IMG/VR virus record: IMGVR_UViG_2534681763_000020
Length of the DNA: 7,841 nucleotides
Direction: 5' to 3' (one strand)
Source: a virus
Lineage: Duplodnaviria > Heunggongvirae > Uroviricota > Caudoviricetes
Position numbers and translations under genes: made by a program. Below the pieces are notes generated by a model. That model had not been told where the DNA came from. It saw only the letters and a list, made by a program, of their open reading frames with translations, and searched no databases. Shown here piece after piece: positions 2,302 to 7,560 of the stretch (positions within the stretch are counted from its first letter, which is position 1; each line of letters begins with the position of its first letter).

Positions 2302-2472
2302 TTACTGTTTGTTTTTTTATATTTTACTGTTCACCTCTGTTCACCTTAAGAAAAAAGATAAGTAATACAGTAAGTTAAAGGGTGAACAATCGCAGTAATG
2401 ACTGTTCACCGTCTGTTCACCACTGTTCACCCGTTGATGGACTTTTTGTGCTGTTTATTACTGTTTGTTTTT
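2302..2472. repeat. ori: ori-like replication origin: six type I iterons (TGTTCACC) bounded by a 15-bp perfect direct repeat and AT-rich DNA
   Basis: TGTTCACC at 2328-2335, 2338-2345, 2403-2410, 2414-2421 and 2424-2431; inverted GGTGAACA at 2381-2388. Spacing is 10-11 bp. TTACTGTTTGTTTTT occurs at 2302-2316 and 2458-2472. The same octamer recurs in the crr repeats downstream of the primase gene. Confidence 0.75.
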
Positions 2473-2584
2473 ATTAATTCGCCGGGAATGAATAAGAAAA
2501 AACGATTTGTATTTCACTATAAAAATTACGAATTGCTTTAAGTGGCTTTAAATGACTTTAAGTGGAGATGAACAAAAAATACAC

Positions 2585-2660
2585 AAGCATTGTAAGGCTG
2601 CCGGAACAAATCCCCCCTGTTGCGTCTGCTGAAAATATTCACAAAATAAAGCGCTACCCG
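2585..2660 (+). promoter_or_regulatory. PLL: Late promoter PLL with Ogr/Delta-type activator site (TGT-N12-ACA) upstream of vis
   Basis: TGTAAGGCTGCCGGAACA at 2591-2608. AATATT -10-like element near 2644-2649. Predicted start around 2655, about 55 nt before the vis ATG. Mirror arrangement to Psid across the iteron cluster. Confidence 0.55.
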
Positions 2661-2710
2661 AAGCCGGACGGACTTATCCGGTGCTGTATGGACATTAACG
2701 AGGTAGCCCG

Positions 2711-2977
2711 ATGCAAGCTGTTTTTTCTTCCCCGTCTCCCGCCCCTGTGACGCCACTGATGCCGCTGCCGGACATCACGCAGGAGCGTTTTTTACGTCTG
2801 CCGGAAGTGATGCACCTGTGCGGCCTGTCACGCTCGACCATCTATGAACTCATCCGTAAGGGGGAATTTCCGCCGCAGGTGAGTCTTGGCGGTAAAAATG
2901 TGGCCTGGCTGCACTCTGAAGTCACCGCATGGATGGCCGGGCGCATTGCCGGACGCAAACGGGGGTACGACGCATGA
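2711..2977 (+). CDS. vis: Vis, AlpA/Xis-family HTH DNA-binding regulator and excision factor, 88 aa
   Basis: 88-aa ORF with AlpA-like helix-turn-helix core ([48 protein letters not shown]). First gene after the PLL-like promoter. Stop TGA (2975-2977) overlaps the first eta ATG. Confidence 0.85.
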
Positions 2978-3564
2978 TGATGCCTGTTCTGCAAAAAGTC
3001 CCTTTTTCTGGCTTGCCTTTTTCCGGCATTTGCGGATATAGTTTTTCCGCTGTCGCAAAATCGGCAGCCGGGCGTGGAAACCCGAGCAATCTAACGGCGA
3101 CATATGACGCGCCATGCGTCTTTTTTTACGTCGTTGCTTCGGCACACCTGTTTGTGTGGTGTGTGGTCAGTCGAGCAGATGGCACTCCGTGCATCCTGCC
3201 CGCGTCCGCTCATTATGCCGCAGAGTCAATGGTAGCTCAGGCGGGGCAGCCTCCGGGCTGGCCGGTATCCGTTAGAGCCGGTATTTCCACCCCCGTCTGG
3301 GCTATCGCCATCGAGCGTGGAAACTCCGGCGATAGCGTAACCTGCTATCTAACGGAGGCTGCCATCATGGCTACAACCCTTACCCCCTCACACCCTGAAT
3401 TTGTCTTTGTGTTTGCGGCTGTCCGTCGCGCAGATCGTCATCCCCGTATCTGTATGCTTCGCACCGTCGCCGGTGATGAACGCAGCGCCCGCCGTTCCCT
3501 TGTCCGTGACTATGTGCTCTCCCTTGCTGCCCGTCTGCCGGTGGTGGAGGTGTCCCGTGCGTAA
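2974..3564 (+). CDS. eta: Eta: long ORF starting at a triple ATG, reading through the immunity RNA region and ending as kil (nested genes)
   Basis: ATGATGATG at 2974-2982 in the same frame as kil, continuous to the kil stop at 3564 (194-196 aa). From memory, P4 eta starts at one of three adjacent start codons upstream of PLE and contains kil as its C-terminal part. Confidence 0.5.
3013..3050 (+). promoter_or_regulatory. PLE: Candidate sigma70 promoter PLE for the immunity transcript
   Basis: TTGCCT (3013-3018), 18-bp spacer, TATAGT (3037-3042). Lies about 20 nt upstream of seqA and about 400 nt downstream of the PLL site, consistent with the recalled P4 layout. Confidence 0.4.
3072..3098 (+). 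promoter_or_regulatory. seqA: seqA: leader element complementary to seqB of the CI immunity RNA
   Basis: GTGGAAA (3074-3080) and TCTAACGG (3090-3097) are reverse-complementary to TTTCCAC (3284-3290) and CCGTTAGA (3269-3276). GTGGAAA may sit in a small stem-loop, CGGG-loop-CCCG. Confidence 0.55.
3240..3320 (+). ncRNA. cI: CI RNA (P4 immunity factor) containing seqB; boundaries approximate
   Basis: seqB core CCGTTAGAGCCGGTATTTCCACCC (3269-3292) pairs with both seqA and seqC. GC-rich structured region with repeats GCCGGTAT (3261-3268 and 3277-3284). Ends were not determined from sequence. Confidence 0.45.
3313..3358 (+). promoter_or_regulatory. seqC: seqC: second target of seqB, containing the kil Shine-Dalgarno
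   Basis: GTGGAAA (3317-3323) lies in the loop of a 9-bp hairpin, GCTATCGCC (3301-3309) / GGCGATAGC (3328-3336). TCTAACGG (3348-3355) runs into GGAGG (3354-3358), the kil ribosome-binding site. Confidence 0.55.
3367..3564 (+). CDS. kil: Kil, 65-aa cell-killing (Icd-like) protein; first translated gene after the immunity leader
   Basis: 65-aa ORF ([65 protein letters not shown]). GGAGG lies 8 nt upstream of the ATG. Length equals the recalled 65 aa of P4 Kil. Confidence 0.75.
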
Positions 3565-3844
3565 TAAAAAAGCCCCTCAGACCGTCTCAGCGCGTCATGA
3601 CGCCCGTGAACACCTCAGCATTGAGGCTTACCATAAGCTCAACCGCGCCAGCGCCGTATCCCAGTTTGTTGGGGGTGATTTGATTCACCGTGAACTCTCC
3701 GGCCTGCATCAGCTCTACATTCCGCATATTTTCAGCTACCTGAATGAAGATATTGATTTTGTGCTGAATGAACTGAAAGCCAAAGGCCTGTGCCGCGATT
3801 TTCTCGCCCAGCAGAAAGACCGGGGAGACAGGACGCATGTTTGA
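3557..3844 (+). CDS. eps: Epsilon (E protein), candidate anti-repressor that derepresses helper prophage P2; 95 aa from a GTG start
   Basis: GTG at 3557 preceded by GGAGG (3547-3551) and overlapping the kil stop (GTGCGTAA). 95 codons. The 3' end overlaps the orf151 start (ATGTTTGA). Assignment is by position between kil and orf151; start codon is uncertain. Confidence 0.55.
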
Positions 3845-4292
3845 TTTTCCCCAGCCCGGTGAGATTTACCGTTCTGCCGGTTTTCCCGATGTGGCCGTGG
3901 TCGGCATTCTGGAAGACGGTATTCCGTGGGAAATGCCGTACCGCTGCCCGGACATTGTCTGGAACCCGTACCGCCGTAAATTCAGTATCCTTGTGCGTAT
4001 CCTCGCTGACGGGCGCACCACAGACATCCCGCTGGGGCGTTTTCTGCGGGAATTTACCTGTGACCGTCCTGACCTGTTTAAACGCAGCCCCGTAAACCGG
4101 CATGCGGTACTGAAAGAAATGGCCGGAGACCCGGAATTACAGAAATGGCGGGAGAAATATCTGGATATTTACCCGCAGGACCCTGTTCCGGTCAGCCGGG
4201 CGGCACCGGTGGCGCGGGAATGGCGGGAAATTCCCCGCACGGAGCCTGACCCGGAAATCACCCCGGATAACAGTTACCGCAATTATCTGTAA
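3837..4292 (+). CDS. orf151-like protein, function unknown
   Basis: 151-aa ORF translationally coupled to the upstream gene. Matches the size and position of P4 orf151 in the left operon. Confidence 0.8.
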   Translation: MFDFPQPGEIYRSAGFPDVAVVGILEDGIPWEMPYRCPDIVWNPYRRKFSILVRILADGRTTDIPLGRFLREFTCDRPDLFKRSPVNRHAVLKEMAGDPELQKWREKYLDIYPQDPVPVSRAAPVAREWREIPRTEPDPEITPDNSYRNYL

Positions 4293-7140: not shown

Positions 7141-7440
7141 CCCGAAGGTGAACAATCCAGTGTTCACCCTTCACCGTATATTCACCCGTTATCACACTGA
7201 AATTAAAAGAGAAAAACGAAAGGTGAACAGTGTGAACAATCAAATCAAAAAAAACTTTTTTCTCACTGTGTGATTTCAGTACGGAGGATTAATCACCGGT
7301 ATGAGTCACACCGGCAGAATGCCGGAGGTGAAGAATCGAATGTTCACCCTTCACCCATTATTCACCACCTATCATACTGAAATAAAAGGAGAAAAAAGAA
7401 AGGTGAACAGTGTGAACAGTTCTTTCGAAAAAAAATTTTT
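7141..7440. repeat. crr: crr (cis replication region): two direct repeats of ~120 bp, ~180 bp apart, each carrying type I iterons
   Basis: Unit 1 about 7141-7260, unit 2 about 7321-7440. Each has GGTGAACA/GGTGAAGA, then TGTTCACC, TTCACC-like half sites, an A-rich block (AAAAGAGAAAAA), and GGTGAACAGTGTGAACA. Perfect octamers at 7147, 7161, 7222, 7341 and 7402. Confidence 0.75.
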
Positions 7441-7560
7441 TTCCTGAGTTAACATGCGTGAAGATACGTGTAAAAATTAATCGATAGATATTATATGTAT
7501 AAGGATGTGTATAAATGAATTATAATAGAAAAATATAAACGATTTGAATCAAATGGTTAT

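Follow-up and report, generated by a model that had tools for sequence, protein, structure and literature searches.

In the P4 CI immunity system (Forti et al. 1999 J Bacteriol 181:5225, Sabbattini et al. 1995 and Briani et al. 2000, via PMC10111431 and PMC4825925), pairing of the CI RNA with seqA and seqC is described as causing termination (PMC4825925). As PMC10111431 summarises the work of Forti et al. (1999), P4 has the eta/kil arrangement, full-length Eta is translated from the upstream late promoter (PLL) only, and its translation, coupled to that of the alpA homologue, prevents termination, allowing PLL transcripts to escape the CI-dependent event. The eta/kil feature is already known, textbook P4 biology. 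Here we compare with it a locus in the window, i.e., the whole 7,841-nt stretch of DNA analysed (IMG/VR record IMGVR_UViG_2534681763_000020), and add to the published model comparative support from Enterobacterales: selection acts on the frame and on its junction with vis, but not on the amino acids upstream of kil.

A related arrangement is the immI operon of P1/P7, reportedly running from the c4 antisense RNA through icd to ant in work attributed to Citron and Schuster (1990) and Riedel et al. (1993). It has in common with the window a C4 RNA family with a/b target boxes, an Icd-like small cell-division inhibitor directly downstream, and a target box that overlaps the ribosome-binding site of the next gene. 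The Salmonella Gifsy-1 IsrK RNA, from the orf45-anrP transcript, shows the layout of the window leader, with two hairpins and a terminator followed by a processed C4-like RNA, and acts in trans, opening a long mRNA isoform for anti-repressor translation; that account (PMC4825925) describes no frame that runs through the RNA and is nested with kil.

The window is about 96% identical to P4 (95.8% in DNA over 2600-3900) and has the P4-type gene order, with psu, delta and sid on the minus strand followed by vis, eta/kil, epsilon, orf151, cII(orf106) and alpha. These features mark the element as a P4-like satellite prophage with the eta/kil nested-gene arrangement already described for P4. A sequence-only reading had named vis, eta/kil and cI as those of P4, and the identity is borne out by the DNA identity, the gene order, a phage_ICD_like match and the RNA elements; its statement that eta translation lets transcripts escape immunity termination likewise matches what PMC10111431 relates of Forti et al. 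1999. P4 likewise starts the ORF at a ATGATGATG that overlaps the vis stop, contains PLE within the ORF and seqA, CI and seqC within the frame, and its 65-aa Kil is 100% identical to that of the window (tblastn). Eta has 196 aa in the window versus 199 aa in P4, and the window spacer is 9 nt shorter (in-frame deletions of 6 and 3) and carries a divergent patch. Neither the GenBank nor the RefSeq record of P4 annotates eta, and the P4 record lists a "cI gene product AA 1-137". The features of the locus are as follows.

2711-2977, plus strand: vis (orf88), AlpA-family excisionase/regulator (ORF list; Pfam Phage_AlpA, E = 7e-21; P4 ORF88 annotation)
2974-2982, plus strand: ATGATGATG, whose ATG1 overlaps the vis stop as ATGA
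2974-3564, plus strand: eta ORF of 196 codons, in the same frame as kil and ending at the same stop
3013-3042, plus strand: PLE-like sigma-70 promoter (TTGCCT, 18-nt spacer, TATAGT) inside eta
3049-3126, plus strand: PLE leader, isrK/seqA-like RNA (Rfam isrK, 72.5 bits; c4-a1b1, 45.8 bits)
3127-3224, plus strand: hypervariable spacer from the leader terminator to CI, whose length varies by multiples of 3 only
3225-3312, plus strand: CI immunity RNA (Rfam C4, RF01695; 76.2 bits versus a gathering score of 45)
3313-3366, plus strand: seqC target region (covariation across 63 loci; sequence read directly)
3367-3564, plus strand: kil, 65 codons, Icd-like cell-division inhibitor (NCBIfam phage_ICD_like, E = 1.6e-21)
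3557-3844, plus strand: epsilon, derepression protein (Pfam Derepression, E = 2.5e-50; P4 annotation; source-contig gene call)

Read directly, 2974-2982 on the plus strand is ATGATGATG, and its first ATG (2974-2976) forms an ATGA overlap with the vis stop TGA (2975-2977). The eta frame then contains no stop until TAA at 3562-3564, confirming a single open frame from the ATGATGATG triplet, where it overlaps the vis stop, to the kil stop, and the length of about 195 aa first proposed fits the 196 aa read from ATG1 or the 194 aa read from ATG3. Measured between stops, the open frame begins at 2920 and includes an earlier in-frame ATG at 2929 inside vis; PGAP and the source-contig gene call both chose ATG1, which is likely the translationally coupled eta start. 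The other five frames of the same stretch have 4-8 stops each. Eta homologues of 182-201 aa are present in many Enterobacterales. Arranged in order within the frame are the PLE-like promoter, the seqA/IsrK-like leader, the CI RNA, seqC and kil; epsilon, the next gene, overlaps the kil end. The frame indeed runs through the immunity RNA, as had been claimed, since the Rfam matches to isrK (3049-3126) and C4 (3225-3312) both lie inside it on the same strand.

The PLE-like site is the sole promoter-like site found in a scan of 2400-3900, and the Rfam isrK model starts at 3049, directly 3' of it. The leader contains the seqA boxes (a-box GTGGAAA, 3074-3080; b-box TCTAACGG, 3090-3097) and, in a terminator scan, a terminator-like hairpin (3106-3120) with a T run on its 3' side. 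In CI, the seqB boxes are the b'-box CCGTTAGA (3269-3276) and the a'-box TTTCCAC (3284-3290), and the C4/CI consensus fold derived from 62 homologues has 28 pairs; 7 of these show compensatory double changes, and hardly any are broken. The seqC boxes repeat those of seqA (a-box GTGGAAA, 3317-3323; b-box TCTAACGG, 3348-3355), the b-box overlapping the kil Shine-Dalgarno GGAGG (3354-3358). Elsewhere in the window, an Rfam Atu_L1 match at 7311-7450 (19 bits, E = 0.46) was dismissed as chance.

This anatomy is best explained, very probably, by P4-like eta/kil nested genes whose frame is kept open for the passage of ribosomes through the immunity RNA. In the immune, lysogenic state, transcripts would begin at the constitutive PLE inside eta, at about 3049, and would therefore lack the eta start codon. 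These transcripts would be processed to CI RNA, whose seqB loop is predicted to pair with seqA and seqC; as seqC overlaps the kil ribosome-binding site, the pairing would leave kil untranslated, and transcription would end prematurely, before the replication genes. Transcripts from the upstream PLL, in turn, would include vis. Ribosomes ending vis at TGA would restart at the overlapping ATG at 2974 and translate through seqA, the leader terminator hairpin, CI, seqC and kil, and this traffic would block CI pairing, formation of the terminator hairpin and exposure of naked RNA to Rho, letting the translated transcripts continue into epsilon and alpha. In this scheme, termination and its prevention are drawn from a secondary literature summary or inferred; the comparative data agree with the published proposal that eta translation on PLL transcripts suppresses CI- and Rho-dependent termination at timm.

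To follow the frame across relatives, 80 loci were fetched via the alpha primase and hence were not picked for having eta; their alpha identity ranges from 99 to 58%, and they span many genera. In about 62 of them, the kil frame extends back through CI in the same codon phase. Stops were counted in 69 unique loci, likewise chosen without regard to an open frame: the eta frame contains 0 in the leader, 0 in the spacer, 1 in CI and 1 in seqC, whereas the other two frames contain 28 and 57, 49 and 28, 85 and 41, and 20 and 113, respectively. The distance from seqA to CI, measured in 73 loci from the seqA hairpin loop to the CI 5' end, is 135, 138, 141, 144, 174 or 183 nt, and every difference among these six classes is a multiple of 3. 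The comparison thus supplies the check proposed with the initial claim, that the frame should be conserved open in related elements, and on these counts the eta frame is selected to stay open.

The junction with vis is conserved as well. The vis stop is embedded in ATGA in 61 of 62 junctions, whichever final sense codon is used (GCA, TCA, CAA, CCA, GAA), and in 39 loci the ATG of this overlap falls in the eta frame; in distant clades, an ORF of 67-86 aa intervenes, itself ATGA-coupled to vis, with an eta-like ATG about 3-10 nt after its stop. This near-invariance argues that the vis-eta ATGA junction is under selection. The triple ATG, which had been singled out as unusual, is present in the window but is not the conserved feature: ATG2 and ATG3 vary among relatives, and only the first ATG, that of the ATGA overlap, is invariant.

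Frame-disrupting changes in otherwise intact relatives, named beforehand as the observation that would make the long ORF fortuitous, are rare and do not overturn the frame, comprising one locus in roughly 70 (L030, Phytobacter, in which the eta frame is broken while vis and kil are intact) and one clade re-phased at the kil junction only. In Pectobacterium and Dickeya, the long ORF remains in the eta phase throughout CI, then passes over kil in a different frame and continues into the next gene; the crossing is weak evidence, because base composition keeps the +1 frame across kil poor in stops, which interrupt it in only 20 of 76 loci. An apparent disruption in an E. coli locus (L083), for which PGAP calls an "ash family protein" pseudogene and a separate kil, was rejected as an annotation artefact, the frame being open for 202 codons.

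We consider it very improbable that the long ORF is a by-product of a conserved, stop-poor RNA and a G+C-rich composition, with kil as the sole gene. Such a reading could draw on the stop-poor +1 frame across kil, on the P4 records that lack eta, and on the eta-specific part, in which amino-acid constraint is missing (see below). It is opposed by the spacer, where the eta frame has 0 stops versus 49 and 28 in the other frames, by the preservation of the frame in every seqA-CI length variant, by the near-invariant ATGA at vis amid variable codons, and by the shuffles, since the 196 codons stay open in just 0.23% of composition-matched ones. Moreover, the P1-like phage D6 carries isrK-like and C4 RNAs, yet its sequence around C4 is open for only 45 codons, has no plus-strand CDS annotated across c4 and lacks an eta-like upstream start, unlike the window, indicating that the RNA alone does not force an open frame.

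Selection on amino acids was compared between kil and the 131 eta-specific codons upstream of it. Kil residues 12-59 match NCBIfam NF033153 (phage_ICD_like) with 76.1 bits against a cut-off of 25, dN/dS for kil (0.23 with all pairs, 0.12 with close ones) contrasts with 1.4-3.05 in shifted frames, and third-position diversity is 0.45 versus 0.19 and 0.17. The 131 eta-specific codons show no amino-acid constraint, with dN/dS of about 0.85 versus 0.84-0.91 in shifted frames, and no codon periodicity or third-position excess; values near 1 are hard to interpret here, as the bases in question are also subject to RNA constraint and recombination, and divergence is high (p about 0.2-0.4). By segment, dN/dS over the leader, CI and seqC is 0.83-0.95, indistinguishable from that of shifted frames; in the spacer, the in-frame ratio is 0.45-0.57, somewhat below 0.70-0.88, which may reflect a bias of protein-guided alignment or weak real constraint. 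The RNA stems covary while the encoded peptide alters radically (e.g., QPPGW, ASHEA, LTSVR). These data place protein-level selection within the long frame in kil alone, and conservation of the eta-specific codons at the RNA level. The proposal of dN/dS analysis over the cI-overlapping part is thereby answered, no amino-acid constraint being seen in that part, and the idea that this DNA encodes part of a protein of about 195 aa holds for the open frame but not, at the amino-acid level, for the 131 codons upstream of kil. The Eta-specific amino-acid sequence is probably a passenger, and we infer that these codons serve as a ribosome track rather than a protein domain. The pattern of selection is consistent with a function of the act of translation rather than of the Eta polypeptide.

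The opposite possibility is that Eta is a true two-domain protein whose N-terminal "Ash" domain (PF10554) has a function of its own, e.g., as a regulator, so that the DNA is fully dual-coding. The Phage_ASH profile does match Eta residues 22-143 (E = 1e-29; 103 bits, cut-off 26), Eta homologues number more than 1000, many of them full length, PHROG families of the Eta kind are labelled transcriptional repressor or regulator, and the spacer ratio is the somewhat lower one given above. However, the match covers exactly the stretch of the isrK/seqA-like leader, the C4 RNA and seqC, and does so also in Pectobacterium and in an Ant protein of an Stx phage; in these three different contexts it coincides with Rfam isrK plus C4. 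The dN/dS of 0.83-0.95 equals that of shifted frames, third-position excess is lacking, and any change in the immunity boxes or RNA stems brings with it a radically different peptide. AlphaFold2, run on a 58-sequence alignment, gave no confident fold for Eta (mean pLDDT 42; residues 1-58 and 80-144 below 50), although a low-confidence Eta model says little because confidence for kil was also only moderate. The purifying selection and foldability expected of a real protein domain are thus not seen for Phage_ASH. The label "repressor", for its part, goes back to a time when cI was taken for a protein gene, as in the "cI gene product" entry of the P4 record. With this evidence, we regard a two-domain Eta as unlikely. 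The labels "Ash family", "transcriptional repressor" and full-length "Icd-like" likely rest largely on translated RNA genes, which is an annotation problem.

The reading of eta as a track for ribosomes can be taken further. We lean, by a modest degree, towards the view that the 131 eta-specific codons have no polypeptide function and form a stop-free, phase-fixed track over the RNA immunity module, in which case Phage_ASH would be the translated shadow of the isrK/seqA and C4/CI RNAs. The Rha-type Ant of lambdoid Stx phages, with its N-terminal Phage_ASH extension, contains isrK-like and C4 RNAs inside the CDS in the eta codon phase, and an internal ATG directly after a seqC-like site; it differs from eta/kil in that the downstream protein is a Phage_pRha antirepressor, not Kil/Icd, and the element is a complete phage, not a satellite. 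The same module in the same phase thus precedes different effectors, with Kil/Icd following it in the P4-like satellites, a Rha-type antirepressor in the Stx phages and a downstream gene in Pectobacterium. If the view is correct, this would point to a general design in which immunity exerted by an RNA is overridden from an upstream promoter, through translation of that RNA. New immunity specificities would then need to be stop-free at three sites at once.

The boxes themselves vary within this frame. The a and b boxes are complementary at seqA, seqB and seqC and show three-way covariation across 63 loci. Compared with P4, whose a-box is GTGAGAA and b-box TTCACAGG, the window has GTGGAAA and TCTAACGG, departing in a compensatory manner at all three sites; elements of the window type are therefore predicted to have an immunity other than that of P4, i.e., to be heteroimmune with it. 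P4-like satellites appear to diversify immunity specificity by combining a-box and b-box variants within a frame that must stay open. By estimate, about 82% of random 8-mers are stop-free in both the seqA and the seqB frames, so that ten box variants say nothing on whether the boxes avoid stops beyond chance.

The eta frame runs uninterrupted in the window from the ATGATGATG triple ATG, which overlaps the vis stop, to the kil stop, as the sequence-only reading had proposed: counted from its first ATG (ATG1), eta comprises 196 codons with no in-frame stop before TAA 3562-3564. Positions 2970-2984 read ...GAC GCA TGA TGA TGC..., with the first ATG of eta and the vis stop sharing an ATGA overlap. 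Measured between stops, the open frame extends back to 2920 and includes an earlier in-frame ATG at 2929, within vis. The other five frames carry 4-8 stops over the 591 nt of eta, and the eta frame stays open in just 0.23% of 20,000 composition-matched shuffles. All three Rfam matches lie inside the ORF on the same strand, bearing out the claim that the frame crosses the immunity RNA, and the promoter and the terminator-like hairpin are the sole sites of their kinds in a scan of 2400-3900. The elements are as follows.

2711-2977, (+), vis/orf88, Pfam Phage_AlpA; stop TGA 2975-2977
2974-2982, (+), triple ATG, read from the sequence
3013-3042, sigma-70-like promoter, TTGCCT / 18 nt / TATAGT
3036-3088, (+), c4-a1b1 target model match, Rfam
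3049-3126, (+), isrK-like leader, Rfam, 72.5 bits
3074-3097, seqA; 3269-3290, seqB (CI loop); 3317-3355, seqC
3106-3120, terminator-like hairpin, followed by a T run
3225-3312, (+), C4/CI antisense RNA, Rfam, 76 bits
3367, kil ATG; 65 codons in the eta frame, ending at the eta stop

On every test run, the feature belongs to the P4 eta/kil arrangement, here in a relative of P4. Window 2600-3900 is 95.8% identical to phage P4, and the gene order is P4-like, with psu, delta and sid on the (-) strand and vis, the long ORF, epsilon, orf151, orf106 and the alpha primase on the (+) strand. An identical 196-aa product is encoded, with the same neighbours, on the NCBI draft-genome contig GCA_000356065.2, and 1253 of 5426 complete E. 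coli genomes carry related copies, at most 96.8% identical over the ORF. RefSeq labels the equivalent 199-codon ORF, starting at the vis-overlapping ATG, 'host cell division inhibitor Icd-like protein'; old P4 records annotate nothing there but a 'cI gene product (AA 1-137)', internal to the ORF and in the eta frame.

According to the summary of Forti 1999 in PMC10111431, only transcripts from the upstream late promoter, PLL, yield full-length Eta, whose translation is coupled to that of the alpA homologue and keeps transcription from terminating; Kil is a truncated Eta made on occasional read-through. The literature describes PLE transcripts, which lack the eta start, as undergoing CI-dependent termination, and PLL transcripts, on which eta is translated, as being read through. 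CI pairs with seqA and seqC, and IsrK/C4 homology has been described (PMC4825925, PMC3632133). The sequence-only claim that eta translation lets PLL transcripts escape immunity-dependent termination agrees with the same summary of Forti 1999 (PMC10111431). Mechanistically, ribosomes arriving from vis would occupy the leader (seqA and the terminator hairpin), CI, seqC and kil, leaving CI unable to pair, the hairpin unable to form and Rho unable to load. At 3354-3358, the GGAGG Shine-Dalgarno sequence of kil is overlapped by the seqC b-box, which fits CI blocking kil translation. The eta/kil finding is real, was correctly interpreted from the sequence and is already known; our comparative analysis adds evidence that conservation concerns translation rather than the Eta peptide, together with a hint that Phage_ASH is a translated-RNA family.

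To avoid selecting for eta, 80 related loci were fetched via the alpha primase (alpha identity 99-58%), from genera including Enterobacter, Citrobacter, Klebsiella, Raoultella, Kosakonia, Edwardsiella, Pantoea, Erwinia, Serratia, Rahnella, Yersinia, Pectobacterium and Dickeya. Nearly all 80 contain recognisable CI and kil homologues, and in about 62 the kil frame extends back across CI in constant phase, CI position 1 being codon position 3, to give ORFs of 174-202 codons. Across 69 unique loci, with no filter for an open frame, the eta frame contains no stops in the leader (28 and 57 in the other two frames) or the spacer (49 and 28), and a single stop each in CI (85 and 41) and seqC (20 and 113), so the frame is conserved open in relatives. 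Measured from the seqA hairpin loop, the CI 5' end lies 135, 138, 141, 144, 174 or 183 nt away (73 loci), distances that all differ by multiples of 3, and the CI-to-kil distance measures 138 nt (62 loci) or 135 nt (6 loci). Frame-disrupting indels, which would have marked the long ORF as fortuitous, are confined to L030 (Phytobacter), with an out-of-phase deletion, and seven Pectobacterium/Dickeya loci (L058, L060, L064-L068), where the CI-to-kil distance is 137 or 134 nt. In these seven, an ORF of about 250 codons (e.g., L060 3622-4380) stays in eta phase across seqA and CI, and a 1-nt length change before kil shifts it into the +1 frame over kil, fusing it with the gene that follows; the 65-codon kil ORF is itself left intact. 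Because the +1 frame over kil is stop-poor, probably by composition, this fusion was counted only as consistent evidence. Among relatives, the kil +1 frame has stops in 20 of 76 loci and the +2 frame 211 stops, and the paucity is probably compositional. In the window, the epsilon frame (3353-3844) is likewise open back to 3353, crossing the whole of kil in the +1 frame. A further candidate disruption, the E. coli locus L083 (NZ_LR778149.1, 956-1555), was rejected: its eta ORF is intact (184 codons), and its treatment in RefSeq as two features, an 'ash family protein' pseudogene plus a 65-aa Icd-like CDS, is an annotation inconsistency. The P1-like phage D6 has both RNA families, isrK-like and C4, yet only 45 codons are open around its C4, indicating that the RNA alone does not impose a long frame. 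With so few disrupting indels in relatives, the long ORF is not refuted; the eta frame is under selection to stay open.

The vis stop lies within ATGA in 61 of 62 junctions; the last vis sense codon varies (GCA, TCA, CAA, CCA, GAA) but invariably ends in A, which argues for selection on the overlapping ATG. This ATG is the in-frame eta start in 39 loci. The triple ATG flagged as unusual is present in the window, but ATG2 and ATG3 are replaced in about one third of the 39 loci (e.g., ATGAATCAG, ATGATGTTG, ATGAAGAAG, ATGACGATG), making it a lineage feature rather than a conserved element. A conserved 67-86-codon ORF with the C-terminus ...L(T/I)(D/N)C (e.g., L044 3682-3900) separates vis from the eta-like ORF in Pantoea, Serratia, Rahnella and similar loci (L043-L081); ATGA couples it to vis, and the eta-like ATG follows its stop by about 3-10 nt, so that an unbroken chain of packed ORFs into the immunity region is conserved.

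The 62 non-redundant ORFs were codon-aligned under protein guidance, and Nei-Gojobori dN/dS was calculated per segment, with identical columns in two shifted frames as controls. For kil, dN/dS is 0.23 in frame against 1.40 and 1.56 shifted (all pairs), and 0.12 against 3.05 and 1.87 (169 close pairs); diversity at codon positions 1, 2 and 3 is 0.19, 0.17 and 0.45. Over the N-terminus, leader/seqA, CI and seqC, the values are 0.83-0.95 in frame against 0.61-1.11 shifted (all pairs), and the pooled eta-specific part gives 0.85 against 0.91 and 0.84 (169 close pairs). The lower spacer values (0.45 for all pairs, 0.57 for close pairs; 0.70-0.88 shifted) may reflect alignment bias. No third-position periodicity is seen in the eta-specific segments of this alignment. 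RNA-level constraint is clear: of 28 pairs in the CI consensus fold, 7 show compensatory double changes and almost none is broken. RNA-preserving changes rewrite the peptide radically (e.g., QPPGW, ASHEA, PTSVG, LTSVR), and, as weak evidence, AlphaFold2 with a 58-sequence alignment gives a mean pLDDT of 42, with residues 1-58 and 80-144 below 50. Peptide-level selection upstream of kil is absent, and we infer that the frame is selected for translatability, the amino acid sequence there being a passenger.

The Pfam Phage_ASH (PF10554) match covers Eta residues 22-143 (nt 3037-3402), exactly the leader/seqA, CI and seqC stretch; the NCBIfam Icd-like match is confined to kil. Phage_ASH coincides with isrK-like and C4 RNAs in three contexts: Eta/Kil (window 3037-3402), the long Pectobacterium ORF (L060 3703-4008) and a Stx1-phage Rha-type Ant (L084 1411-1699), whose annotated CDS contains this RNA module in the same codon phase as eta. 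This coincidence, and the lack of amino acid selection in the P4-like set, hint that the 'domain' may be the translation of an RNA module.

Differences between the window and P4 cluster in seqA, the CI loop and seqC and are mutually compensatory. The window has a-box GTGGAAA and b-box TCTAACGG, and P4 has GTGAGAA and TTCACAGG. Both boxes covary perfectly at the three sites across 63 loci, with about 6 a-box and about 10 b-box variants in many combinations; that of the window is common to L018 (Atlantibacter) and L082 (E. coli STEC299). The compensatory box differences predict that the window is heteroimmune to P4, i.e., of another immunity type. The window spacer is also 9 nt shorter than that of P4; at 3135-3160 it has lost 6 and 3 nt in frame and diverges strongly. 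This patch resembles the spacer of L083, and L082 combines window-type immunity boxes with a P4-type spacer, which suggests that the immunity region is a recombinational mosaic. Elsewhere, a pair of 120-nt direct repeats with 83% identity follows alpha (7142-7261 and 7322-7441, 180 nt apart); by position, they are presumably the P4 crr cis replication region. Between sid and vis, CTGTTCACC(T/A)CTGTTCACC repeats at 2327-2345 and 2413-2431 sit where the NC_001609 annotation places the P4 ori type-1 repeats.
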